From Gammaproteobacteria bacterium (GTDB lineage: Bacteria; Pseudomonadota; Gammaproteobacteria; SZUA-140), in NCBI GenBank assembly GCA_046754065.1, contig JBHHVB010000008.1:2497-66496 (forward strand): a stretch of DNA of 64,000 bases, given 5' to 3'. The notes below the pieces were generated by a model that did no database searches, was not told the DNA's origin, and was given only the letters and a program-made list of their open reading frames with translations. Below, piece by piece: positions 36,038-38,102 of this stretch; position 1 is the stretch's first letter; each line of letters opens with the position of its first letter. The position numbers and the translations under genes are program-made.

Positions 36038-37480
36038 TCAGTTTCCTCGTAAACGAAAGATTCGTTTAATCCATTTTCTGGTCAATGGTGTCAGATTTTT
36101 CTTCATGCGTTCATCTGATATGCGGTGATTTATCTGTGCTAGCGTGGGATAAATGTGAATAACACCAGACAAATCTGAAGCTTTCATTTTCATTGCTAAG
36201 GCTAATGTGTATTCATGAATGAGTTCTCCGGCATGTGAACCAACCAGTGCGGCACCGAGCAGTCTGCCTTTTTTATTGGTGATGATCTTGCCAAATCCGG
36301 TGGTATCTCCATCGGTCTGGGCTCGATCTATATCTTCAAACGGAAACTTGTAACATCTGTAGTCGATTTTTTGCTGTCGAGCTTCTTCTTCTGACAGTCC
36401 CACTCGAGCCAGTTCAGGATCAGTGAAGGTGCACCACGGGATGACTCTTTTTTCAATTTTTGCAGGCAACCTGAACAGGGTGTTTCGCAATACGATGCCG
36501 GCATGGTGTTCTGCCATATGAGTGAATTGGTGCGAACCGGTAATATCTCCGCATGCAAAGATACGTCTGTTCGATGTGCGCAGGCGATCATCAGTAACGA
36601 TATGGCCATGCTCAACTTCGATACCTGCTGCGTCGAGTCCCAGATTATCTACATTGGATTTCCGCCCTGTCGCGACCAGCAGGTGTGTCGCCTTTATCGT
36701 CTGCACCTGATTGTTTTCTTTTGAGGTAAAGGTTAGGCGGATATTTTCCGTAGAACCCTCAATTCTTTCTATATTATTGTTTTGGTAAAATCGGATGTTT
36801 TCATTTTTTAACCTTTCTTTGACCACGTCTGCAAGATCATGATCTTCTTTCGGTAAGATCCGCGTTCCGCGTTGCACAACGGTCACGTCAGAACCCAGGC
36901 GAGAGAAAGCCTGGGCCATTTCAAGACCAATTGGACCAGTTCCCAAAACGAGCAGATGTGGAACGGGTTCATCGCTAGAGAATATCGTTTCATTAGTGAG
37001 ATACGGTGTATTATTGATGCCATCAATCGAGGGTATTGCTGGACGGGAGCCGGTTGCTATGACGAAATGTCGTGCTGTGATCGTTCGGCCATTCACCTCG
37101 AAAGTGGAGGGGGAAGTAAATTGTCCTGCGCCAAAGATAACATCAATACCCATAGCGCGAAATCGATCGGGGCTATCGTGGACCTCGATTGTTTTGATCA
37201 CCTGTGAGACGCGTTGCATAATATCAGGCAGACTGATTTCAGGATGATGAGGTGTAATGCCGAATCGTTGACTGTCACGCATGGTGTTTGCGACCTTTGC
37301 GCTGTTTAGCAACGTCTTGCTGGGCACACAGCCATAATGCAGGCAGTCACCGCCTAGCGCGTTCTTTTCAATCAGCGCAACCTTGGCGCCTAGCGATGCA
37401 CCGCCAGCCGCGACGACAAGACCACCGGCGCCGCCGCCGATGACGCACAGATCAAATTCAGGTGTTTTCATTAGAAGCAT
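36038..37480 (-). CDS. Class I pyridine nucleotide-disulfide oxidoreductase (mercuric-reductase/LpdA-like, no MerA C-terminal CC)
   Basis: GGGAGG, GGDCLHYGCVPSK, FTH.A, TDPE, HIYPT. Confidence 0.85.
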   Translation of the reverse strand: MLLMKTPEFDLCVIGGGAGGLVVAAGGASLGAKVALIEKNALGGDCLHYGCVPSKTLLNSAKVANTMRDSQRFGITPHHPEISLPDIMQRVSQVIKTIEVHDSPDRFRAMGIDVIFGAGQFTSPSTFEVNGRTITARHFVIATGSRPAIPSIDGINNTPYLTNETIFSSDEPVPHLLVLGTGPIGLEMAQAFSRLGSDVTVVQRGTRILPKEDHDLADVVKERLKNENIRFYQNNNIERIEGSTENIRLTFTSKENNQVQTIKATHLLVATGRKSNVDNLGLDAAGIEVEHGHIVTDDRLRTSNRRIFACGDITGSHQFTHMAEHHAGIVLRNTLFRLPAKIEKRVIPWCTFTDPELARVGLSEEEARQQKIDYRCYKFPFEDIDRAQTDGDTTGFGKIITNKKGRLLGAALVGSHAGELIHEYTLALAMKMKASDLSGVIHIYPTLAQINHRISDERMKKNLTPLTRKWIKRIFRLRGN

Positions 37481-37679
37481 GGCTAAAAATATTTTTAGTT
37501 GGATTAGTAAGTAGTCGTAAAAACGATTAAATAGTTACATGGAACTGTATTGGAATAGGAAATATTCAGCTAGATTCAGGCTCAGGTTCTGCTTAGGAAA
37601 GCTGGTTGTCTGTAGCCGATTAGTCAGCGGGTGCAGTTCAATGGTAGAAAGGGAGCTTCCCAAGCTCTTAATGTGGGTT

Positions 37680-37754
37680 AATCCACCACATCCCTGTGGC
37701 GTACCCTTTGCAGGGCAACCTTCGGCTGTTCCGTTTCATTCCAGGTGAAACGGT
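37680..37754 (+). mobile_element. 75-nt structured T-loop insertion element (variant A)
   Basis: Hairpins CCACA/TGTGG, CCCT/AGGG, CAACC/GGCTG, CCGTTTCA-ttccagg-TGAAACGG, ends GGT. Confidence 0.6.
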
Positions 37755-37825
37755 GATGTCGGCCTTCCATGGCCGCTAGCCTGCTGGCAGCTAAAGCTGT
37801 CCCATTTTGTTCCGGACAAAATGGT
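37755..37825 (+). mobile_element. 71-nt structured T-loop insertion element (variant B)
   Basis: GATGTC start; GGCC/GGCC, GCC/GGC, CAGC-taaa-GCTG, CCATTTTG-ttccgga-CAAAATGG, ends GGT. Confidence 0.6.
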
Positions 37826-37864
37826 CGATTCCCGTTAATATGACGGGAATCCGGTGTTTCAAAA

Positions 37865-37996
37865 GCGGGTGTAGTTCAGTGGTAGAACGGGAGCTTCCCA
37901 AGCTCTTAATGTGGGTTGATGTCAGCCATCCCTGACTTCCACCCTTCGGGCAGCTAAAGCTGTCCCATTTTGTTCCGGACAAAATGGTCGATTCCC
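37865..37996 (+). pseudogene. Second tRNA-Gly(CCC) copy with one 71-nt T-loop insert
   Basis: Exact 53 nt 5' part 37865-37917, insert 37918-37988, CGATTCCC, no acceptor 3' strand. Confidence 0.8.
37918..37988 (+). mobile_element. 71-nt structured T-loop insertion element (variant C)
   Basis: GTCAG-ccatcc-CTGAC, CCC-ttc-GGG, CAGC-taaa-GCTG, CCATTTTG-ttccgga-CAAAATGG-T. Confidence 0.6.
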
Positions 37997-38027
37997 GTTA
38001 ATATGACGGGAATCCGGTGTTTCAAAA

Positions 38028-38101
38028 GCGGGTGTAGTTCAGTGGTAGAACGGGAGCTTCCCAAGCTCTTAATGTGGGTTCGATTCCCATCACCCGCTCC
38101 A
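38028..38101 (+). tRNA. tRNA-Gly(CCC), intact
   Basis: 74 nt GCGGGTGTAGTTCAGTGGTAGAACG..TT-CCC-AA..GTGGGTTCGATTCCCATCACCCGCTCCA. Confidence 0.96.
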
Positions 38102-38102
38102 G

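Follow-up and report, generated by a model that had tools for sequence, protein, structure and literature searches.

What kind of genetic unit interrupts copies of tRNA genes again and again at one and the same point of the T-loop, and does so without leaving duplicated bases behind? This question is posed by an intergenic region (positions 37481–38102) in a 64,000-nucleotide stretch of gammaproteobacterial DNA, referred to below as the window, that lies between a gene for a pyridine-nucleotide-disulfide oxidoreductase and a PyrK-like gene. The surroundings consist of housekeeping genes only, with no mobile genes among them. A sequence-only reading of this DNA had described three related elements here, located between GGGTT and CGATTCCC of tRNA-Gly copies, two of them arranged head to tail and all terminating in GGT, and the coordinates given for them match the sequence. 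On the basis of the analysis described below, we consider it probable that these elements (E1, E2 and E3) are members of a widespread family of approximately 72-nt, non-autonomous mobile DNA repeats that insert precisely, prefer tRNA T-loops and are mobilised in trans.

Organization of the tRNA-Gly locus

All features of the locus are on the forward (+) strand, and the three elements are intergenic. First comes a 5′ fragment of tRNA-Gly(CCC) (37627–37679; nt 1–53, GCGGGTG...GTGGGTT) that ends in GGGTT and carries three differences from the intact gene (94.3% identity over 53 nt); its Rfam tRNA score of 26.2 bits falls below the threshold of 29. E1 (37680–37754, 75 nt, four hairpins) follows at the junction within the T-loop and abuts E2 (37755–37825, 71 nt), to which it is joined head to tail. 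The next 39 nt (37826–37864, in full CGATTCCCGTTAATATGACGGGAATCCGGTGTTTCAAAA) comprise CGATTCCC, which corresponds to the 3′ half of the T-loop and T-stem, an inverted repeat that can form the hairpin GATTCCCGT/ACGGGAATC, and a spacer, without an acceptor 3′ strand. A second 5′ fragment (37865–37917; nt 1–53), 100% identical to the intact gene over its 53 nt, precedes E3 (37918–37988, 71 nt), after which CGATTCCC, the hairpin and the spacer recur as a 100% identical copy (37989–38027). The region closes with an intact tRNA-Gly(CCC) gene (38028–38101), recognized by ARAGORN and scoring 71.1 bits with the Rfam tRNA model. No other copy of this isoacceptor was detected in the assembly, and the gene provides a paralogous 'empty site', GGGTT^CGATTCCC.

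When an element is removed from its fragment, GGGTT is joined to CGATTCCC, which is the sequence of the intact gene, and no target duplication is left; this agrees with what had been deduced before. The insertion cut can also be placed one base leftward because both the flank and the element end in T. The description of the hosts as tRNA-Gly copies is correct as to sequence, which is that of tRNA-Gly(CCC), but needs amendment as to extent: since the hairpin GTTAATATGACGGGAATCCGGTGTTTCAAAA, rather than a tRNA 3′ end, follows CGATTCCC, the tRNA never resumes and the hosts are only 5′ fragments that lack the acceptor 3′ strand.

Much of the locus is also organized as two units of a 163-nt tandem repeat (37754–38079; 94% in the repeat search), each composed of an element, the spacer and a tRNA 5′ fragment. 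The last 40 nt of E2 and E3 and the 91 nt that follow them are identical (131 nt, 100%), whereas their first 31 nt differ. Repetition of this sort raises the suspicion of an assembly artefact in a repeat-rich metagenome bin, as does the state of the source assembly, which consists of 144 contigs and carries other copies of the element at contig ends. Unitigs from four sequencing runs, all of one sample that is probably the source, span 37300–37815, 37786–37917 and 37888–37978, with depth approximately doubled across 37781–37928. They support each junction and bridge every junction type, no alternative joints were reported, and the architecture is seen again in unrelated genomes, complete chromosomes included. 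We therefore judge an artefact to be extremely improbable. The earlier worry about misassembly is answered for the junctions, but it stands for the copy number of the 163-nt unit, which the unitigs do not fix. An orthologous empty site was sought beside the PyrK-like gene, which is present in 25 of 26 family genomes; at none of the loci of this gene in 13 relatives does a tRNA-Gly lie within 1.5 kb.

Architecture and covariation

A covariance model built from four copies (R1) matches those copies with E-values between 1e-15 and 1e-18. E1 is the most divergent of the window copies (79.5 bits, E 2.4e-15), and E2 and E3 score 83.8 bits and 89.9 bits (E 8.9e-18), respectively. In the family consensus, a 5′ GAYG is followed in order by hairpin 1 (loop ATCCNT), a CCC-TNC-GGG mini-hairpin, a variable hairpin 3, the trinucleotide TCC, hairpin 4 (loop YTCCNGR) and a 3′ GT. 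Folding as single-stranded DNA gave z-scores of −3.1, −3.6 and −3.8 for E1, E2 and E3, and a z-score of −6.4 for a further copy on contig C1 that was folded one base short at its 5′ end; none of 200 shuffles equalled any of the four. Hairpin 4 of E1 has three stem pairs altered on both sides relative to E2–E4. The four hairpins and compensatory stem changes noticed in the initial reading are real, both in the alignment and in the folds.

Covariation was assessed over a wider set of 106 model matches (102 distinct) that came from 80 loci of a motif scan and whose alignment was fitted to the model. In this set 96.6% of 1969 cells are paired, versus 70.5% in shuffles, double-sided changes are found at 16 of 20 pairs, and the covariation score is 0.593, versus at most 0.076 when the pairing partners are slid. 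The motif by which the sample was chosen fixes CATCCNTG and CCCTNCGGG, so that what is counted for the loops of hairpins 1 and 2 is in part circular; neither hairpin 3 nor the stems are affected, and the stems of hairpins 1, 3 and 4 lie outside the motif.

Copies elsewhere in the source genome

R1 has eight good matches in the source genome. Every clear copy is located at TT^CGA or TT^CAA of a tRNA T-loop and has an intact gene beside it. A fourth copy, identified by BLAST on contig C1, has as its host a duplicated 33-nt 3′ fragment, 37 nt upstream of which a tRNA-Ile2(CAU) gene ends that itself contains a group I intron (82.7 bits in Rfam); the junctions of this copy read TGGTCGTAGGTT on the left and CGAGTCCTACCGGGCCCACCA on the right of the element. 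Another copy lies in antisense orientation within a full-length but decayed tRNA-Gln copy that adjoins an intact tRNA-Gln(CTG) gene, and the host of the Asn copy, which is split across two contig ends, is a 3′ fragment of tRNA-Asn, 89 nt past the intact gene. Two further contig ends carry 3′ ends of the element (the contig-end copies being those of C4/C60, C109 and C133). A truncated left half is found on contig C32.

For Gly-CCC, Gln-CTG and Asn-GTT there is exactly one intact gene each, and it adjoins the copy that was hit. The association also holds when viewed from the tRNA side, as an element is present in each of the five tRNA fragments internal to contigs, a count that leaves aside two others situated at contig ends. 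Some weak 85-nt model matches in this genome are not copies of the family, but lie inside an unrelated 385-nt MITE.

Insertion precision and target choice

Comparison of tRNA-Ile2, Gln, Asn, Lys and Glu fragments with their intact neighbours reveals in each case an exact addition, with no duplicated target bases. The same precision is evident outside tRNA genes. In the complete chromosome G061, a composite repeat exists with and without an inverted element, the empty form reading ...GTTGAGGG directly joined to AACATGTGCC, and the filled form contains no duplication. Among 91 distinct flank pairs, the base preceding the element (−1) is T in 69, and the base following it (+1) is C in 57 and G in 21. 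The elements are discrete units, inserted precisely after T and usually before C, less often before G, without duplication.

Preference for tRNA genes varies with the sample. In copies from relatives of the same class, the right flank is T-loop-like (C-R-A-N-Y-Y) in 18 of 32 cases, and 15 of the 32 copies have an intact tRNA gene no more than 400 nt away. For the wider sample, selected by motif, the corresponding counts are 10 of 98 and, within approximately 400 nt, 15 of 98; by a rough estimate, chance alone would place about 1.5% of positions in such a genome within this distance of a tRNA gene. Insertions are found on either strand of the T-loop, the sense site being GGTT^CGA and the antisense site GGATT^CGAACC. 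T-loop DNA cut as TT^CRA is strongly favoured in either orientation, yet other targets are used too, and the general rule is T^C. The T-loop specificity proposed at the outset accordingly describes all clear source-genome copies and more than half of the class-relative copies, but fails as a rule for the wider sample.

Hosts other than tRNA genes include composite repeats and, in several phyla, palindromes of the form CTTTCTTTGGTTACTTTCTT...AAGAAAGTAACCAAAGAA. Complementarity between the two flanks, the expected sign of insertion into hairpin loops or of a closing helix, does not reach significance (p 0.07). Several copies lie inside larger palindromes. The order GGGTT–E1–E2 is consistent with a second hit, because the 5′ half of the target survives a first insertion.

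These host arrangements bear on whether the fragments might be scars of tRNA-targeting integrative elements, in which case they would be attL and attR remnants and the element would be conserved DNA from the end of an island. The 3′ fragments of tRNA-Ile2, Asn and Lys do start near tRNA position 44 and run to CCA, and they resemble what we take to be attR sites of T-loop-type integrases. It is hard to reconcile with this explanation that both halves of one T-loop flank the element, that the supposed islands would measure merely 29 to 100 nt, and that 5′ fragments occur as well (in the window and for Gln). Most family members reside away from tRNA genes, and these copies already contradict an island origin, as does the clean filled/empty pair inside a non-tRNA repeat. 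Thus we rate island scars as very unlikely.

Distribution of the family

R1 matches are present in 20 of 61 related genomes (the source genome counted), with at most 15 matches in one genome. A motif scan that included one genome per species yielded at least 123 stretches in named genomes, and the matches listed are mostly from Gammaproteobacteria. Genera among the matches listed are Stenotrophomonas, Thermomonas, Microbulbifer, Rheinheimera, Serratia, Pseudomonas, Halomonas, Methylophaga and Sedimenticola, and the other groups among them are Zetaproteobacteria, Magnetococcales, Desulfobulbia, Nitrospira and Holophagaceae bins. The covariance-model search that had been suggested for the three copies therefore does recover homologs well beyond the source genome. 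Five copy-rich genomes contain at least 15, 23, 47, 60 and 72 matches, counts that are lower bounds because 150 candidates were scored per genome. Copy-rich genomes also carry head-to-tail arrays of the 72-nt unit, including arrays of 11 and 6 units. In the family as a whole, tandem arrays range from 5 to 11 units, inverted pairs have spacers of 11–24 nt, and copies additionally nest inside other repeats.

A blastn search of complete E. coli genomes with E3 gave no match. The motif has three matches in the phage contigs of IMG/VR, and the element is therefore not phage-borne as a rule. As to plasmids, the only indication is the unannotated Serratia/Yersinia context of one copy. With Rfam 15, no family scores at or above its gathering threshold on the window elements or on those of four other loci, and only tRNA matches pass; the best non-tRNA match on a window element is DUF3085, at 17.7 bits versus a threshold of 40.6. 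This outcome is in keeping with the initial failure to assign the element to a named family. Searching of full-text literature did not turn up a description of the element, a scope that older papers on tRNA-linked repeats lie outside. Papers from the 1980s exist on tRNA-linked repeats and on tRNA pseudogenes of Photobacterium, and these may bear on novelty. The family of which E1–E3 are members is large and apparently has no name yet.

Constraint on DNA or on RNA

A conserved set of hairpins could be maintained because it functions in RNA or because it functions in single-stranded DNA. G·U combinations occupy 20 of the 1969 cells (1.0%) and A·C combinations 23 (1.2%), and both are rarer than other mismatches. 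On the given strand the small loops are T-N-C with a closing C-G pair, which on the complement become G-N-A, again closed by C-G, with CTNCG occurring 153 times and CGNAG five times on the given strand of 93 elements. C(GNA)G triloops form unusually stable DNA mini-hairpins. With DNA parameters, the complementary strand is the more stable one in 86 of 93 copies (Wilcoxon p 5e-13). Of 25 elements flanked by co-directional reading frames, 12 have the same orientation as the frames and 13 the opposite one (by a crude frame call), and this lack of bias speaks against a strand-specific RNA role. Open reading frames cross the element in 41 of 96 cases, which in GC-rich DNA is uninformative. Because the covariation is strictly Watson–Crick and strand-symmetric and the complement carries C(GNA)G triloops, DNA hairpins are indicated rather than RNA hairpins, and our structural comparisons point to a fold that matters as DNA and not as RNA.

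We nevertheless considered that the element might act as RNA, either as an intron-like or self-processing insert of tRNAs, as the sequence-only reading had offered as one option, or as a transcribed module that binds a protein. Strong conservation of structure and the retention of loop motifs across phyla would suit such a function. The loop of hairpin 1 on the complementary strand, CANGGATG, resembles what we presume to be the binding consensus of CsrA/RsmE, and arrays with 5 to 11 tandem units would be comparable to sponge RNAs that have many sites. Arguing the other way are the near-equal numbers of G·U and A·C and of the two orientations, as well as hosts that are truncated or pseudogenic tRNA fragments without acceptor 3′ strands. 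Taking the element out in silico gives back a detectable full tRNA for just 2 of 127 copies, in both of which the element is antisense. These are the tRNA-Gln copy of the source genome and a tRNA-Met copy of a Woeseiaceae bin, and both adjoin an identical or near-identical intact gene. Moreover, no ribozyme, intron or Csr/Rsm family of Rfam reaches threshold on the element. The intron proposal is not supported by these observations, and we regard RNA function in general as quite unlikely.

The search for a mobiliser

If the elements move as DNA, an enzyme that moves them might be encoded nearby or elsewhere in the same genomes. Reading of the genes surrounding the window elements disclosed no mobilising gene, which, together with the pairing seen in 96.6% of cells, bears out the earlier characterization of the element as structure-conserved and non-autonomous. 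The sequence-only reading had raised mobilisation by HUH/Y1 nucleases. Y1_Tnp is present in 44 of the 61 relatives, and none of the Y1 genes of the source genome has an element beside it. The Pfam Y1_Tnp model finds no match in the element-bearing genomes G049 (97% complete, seven copies), G038, G052 and G012, nor in the complete chromosome G061, which contains at least 23 copies of the element. Five copies in G061 have the same score of 68.3 bits, and four are identical in sequence among the copies examined. A mode of movement through single-stranded DNA fits the observations, then, but the Y1 enzymes themselves are not matched in genomes such as G061 and G049. Likewise, IS110 has no match in G061, G065 and G050, and IS91 has none in four of five genomes.

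A model of the left half alone was used to look for a larger unit bounded by element ends, and none was found. Its matches in G061 and G065 are whole elements or a truncated piece within a 2267-nt tandem duplication that encodes a protein with HTH and AAA domains. The genes located between pairs of elements are unremarkable, namely one for an oxidoreductase, and rplS together with one for a Xer-like recombinase. Three complete chromosomes, considered without reference to their origins, are free of the long same-strand runs of copies expected from an IS200/IS605-type element with a strong lagging-strand bias, although many of the copies there are carried within other repeats. We infer that the E1–E3 family is moved in trans by an enzyme that these searches did not reveal.

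The main rival to mobilisation in trans is homology-driven spread between repeats, for which no transposase would be needed. Gene conversion between dispersed repeats, or annealing over short homologies, would transfer the element, which would loop out as a compact, tightly folded bulge, with T-arm DNA (GGTTCGAATCC-like sequences, present in every tRNA gene) and other repeats as the source of homology. This account gains from the fact that none of Y1, IS110 and IS91, all of them transposase families whose insertions leave no target duplication, is consistently present and from the geometry of the fold, which brings the two ends of the element near each other. It gains also from the nature of many flanks, which are repeats themselves: T-arms, the composite repeats of G061, and in several phyla the palindrome CTTTCTTTGGTT..AACCAAAGAAAG. 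Since some flanks are repeats, recombination between repeats is possible for those copies. However, many flanks in the wider sample look unique, the flank consensus is merely T^C, and the homology offered by T-arms is very short (approximately 5 to 11 nt per side). In addition, copies in different tRNA genes of one genome differ considerably. Overall, we consider the annealing or conversion route unlikely, and we retain movement in trans as the working explanation.

Comparison with known repeats and mobile elements

The element has much in common with REP, BIME and REPIN sequences. Like these, it is short, non-coding, present in high copy number, hairpin-forming, and variable in sequence but conserved in structure, and it occurs in inverted doublets, clusters and mosaics with other repeats, with an unpaired tag (here GAYG) beside a hairpin and a presumed movement in trans as single-stranded DNA. 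A REP, however, is one imperfect palindrome of 20–40 nt with a GTAG (or CGTC) tag, whereas the element has four ordered hairpins in approximately 72 nt and GAYG as its tag. Head-to-tail arrays are common for the element, and tRNA T-loop DNA is preferred, unlike in REPs and REPINs. Furthermore, genomes with REPs carry a cognate RAYT (a Y1 HUH enzyme), which is typically flanked by the repeats, while G061 and G049 are without a Y1_Tnp match.

One group of REPs merits separate mention. By Di Nocera et al. 2013 (PMC3733652), REPs with a CGTC tag are said to 'apparently lack a dedicated transposase'; they are described there as single hairpins with 8–9 bp stems that start with A/T pairs, loops of 4–5 nt and a CCA tail, found mostly in Alphaproteobacteria, some of them inside larger palindromes. 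The CGTC tag reads GACG on the other strand, which is the start of many element copies, but the stem, loop, tail and host features do not fit.

Elements of the IS200/IS605 group and the miniature PATEs derived from them share with the family the absence of target duplication and of terminal inverted repeats, as well as a subterminal hairpin at each end, with loops that resemble one another (in the element, hairpins 1 and 4 have TCC in common). They also keep a conserved 5′ target base after insertion, which permits a second hit, as for E1 ahead of E2. Differences are found in the target, which for the element is only T or TT, with no tetranucleotide or pentanucleotide consensus in the 91 flank pairs, and in the right-end hairpin, which reaches to 1 nt from the end. 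In contrast to IS200/IS605, a full-length parent encoding TnpA was not found, a Y1 transposase is not consistently present, and there are no obvious strand runs along chromosomes.

A MITE of the type with terminal inverted repeats (TIRs) and a DDE transposase is a poor description, given that the ends GAYG... and ...GT are not inverted repeats and that filled/empty pairs contain no duplication. Integron attC sites are similar in being conserved in structure and variable in sequence, in their size (57–141 nt), and in recombining as one folded DNA strand without duplication. Unlike attC sites, the element lacks the RYYYAAC/GTTRRRY (R″/R′) ends, which neither the 60 aligned left halves nor the 3′ ends contain, and it shows no overall palindrome, no cassette arrays with ORFs, and a junction other than G^TT. 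Finally, the non-canonical tRNA introns of archaea and red algae also lie at the T-loop of tRNA genes. Those introns are RNA, reside in functional genes and are spliced by an endonuclease, whereas the hosts here are broken, both orientations occur and the constraint resembles that on DNA. We read the element, by these comparisons, as REP/BIME-like without the defining features of a REP/RAYT system, an IS200/IS605 derivative, a TIR-type MITE, an attC site or an intron.

Proposed explanation and its implications

In the mechanism we propose, the elements would act as folded single-stranded DNA, with the complement of the given strand as the better-folding strand, and an enzyme acting in trans would move them. 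An insertion into an essential single-copy tRNA gene would survive only after local duplication of that gene, and tolerance of hits by locally duplicated genes would explain why tRNA-borne copies sit in truncated or decayed spares beside an intact gene. For the window, the proposal is that elements inserted into two spare copies of tRNA-Gly(CCC), in one case on two occasions (giving E1 ahead of E2), and that the locus may later have been reshaped by the 163-nt tandem duplication or by gene conversion.

A bolder version of this proposal can be offered only tentatively, as a possibility we would not presently bet on. Here the family would represent a new class of hairpin-forming single-stranded DNA element, with a mobiliser outside Y1 HUH, IS110 and IS91 or supplied by a host enzyme, that homes to the T-loop, the best-conserved stretch of tRNA genes, on both strands and persists because its hits select for local tRNA duplication. 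On this version it would repeatedly promote the duplication of tRNA genes and the formation of tRNA pseudogenes and tRNA-linked repeats in Proteobacteria.

Some consequences are practical. Short-read assemblies break at the element, as illustrated by the copies at contig ends here, and annotation of tRNAs and other ncRNAs can be misled, since one disrupted copy exceeds the Rfam tRNA threshold. The points that we consider most deserving of attention are the preference for T-loops, the four-hairpin design at the level of DNA, and the missing mobiliser. If the explanation is true, many bacteria would carry a compact mobile repeat of folded DNA without a recognisable transposase, and the family would present a clean case for a new mobilising activity or for a demonstrated use of host enzymes. 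A true preference for T-loops would mean that the element mutates tRNA genes, and it would explain both tandem tRNA pseudo-copies and repeats linked to tRNA genes.

Arrays and truncated copies of the element

Head-to-tail arrays of 5 to 11 units of the approximately 72-nt, four-hairpin element, repeating with an exact 72-nt period, were found at two Rheinheimera loci (L075 and L099) and on contig C3 of the copy-rich genome G065, where they occupy G065:C3:2323419-2324211 and G065:C3:2120409-2120841. A further array on the same contig (G065:C3:2343087-2343854) has a period of approximately 173 nt. Elsewhere on this contig (locus L195, G065:C3:265500-274500), a 2267-nt unit coding for an HTH and AAA_22 protein is tandemly duplicated, and three copies of a 36-nt truncated left half of the element are spaced exactly 2267 nt apart across the duplication.

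At window position 37844, in the hairpin 3' of element copy E2, the window carries C where the unitigs of all four sequencing runs carry T, which may reflect a difference between the two repeat units or a population variant.

Complementary-strand loops

On the complementary strand of all element copies, the apex of hairpin 1 (loop and closing pair) reads CANGGATG, as at window positions 37686-37699 and 37925-37936, and the loop of hairpin 4 includes NGGA. These loops resemble the CsrA/RsmE binding consensus. The element shows no orientation bias that would support an RNA role.

Neighbouring genes and repeats

In the window's own genome (G000), a group I intron that matches Rfam RF00028 at 82.7 bits interrupts the anticodon loop of a tRNA-Ile2(CAU)-like gene (G000:C1:78119-78357, corresponding to L001 2620-2858, minus strand in both), for which ARAGORN made no call. 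One element copy resides 37 nt downstream of this gene, within a duplicated 3' fragment.

The same genome carries a 385-nt MITE at G000:C5:37589-37973 and in at least 10 other places (on C1, C3, C6, C7, C11, C12, C24, C45 and C143, among others), frequently at contig ends. This MITE, which is presumably IS5-like, is bounded by the terminal inverted repeats CCCGAATATTTCACCAAGG and shows an apparent duplication of CTAG. Some of its hairpins have CATCCATG loops, and the element covariance model matches it weakly, over 85 nt. In genome G061, a composite repeat has a left end similar to the terminal repeat of this MITE.

Elements are also enclosed by a recurrent long palindrome that occurs in several phyla (..CTTTCTTTGGTTACTTTCTT | E | G..CAAGAAAGTAACCAAAGAA.., where E is the element), as observed at L044, L073, L074 and L111 (Stenotrophomonas) and at L078, L086, L087, L112, L120 and L122. 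This palindrome seems to be a further widespread repeat and to act as a host site.

A copy shared between genera

One element copy, together with homologous flanks, is common to Serratia proteamaculans, S. quinivorans and Pseudomonas lundensis (L081, L091 and L107), and is partially present in plasmid records from Serratia and Yersinia (NZ_MT039221.1 and NZ_MT039226.1). This distribution suggests that the copy is carried on a transferable element.
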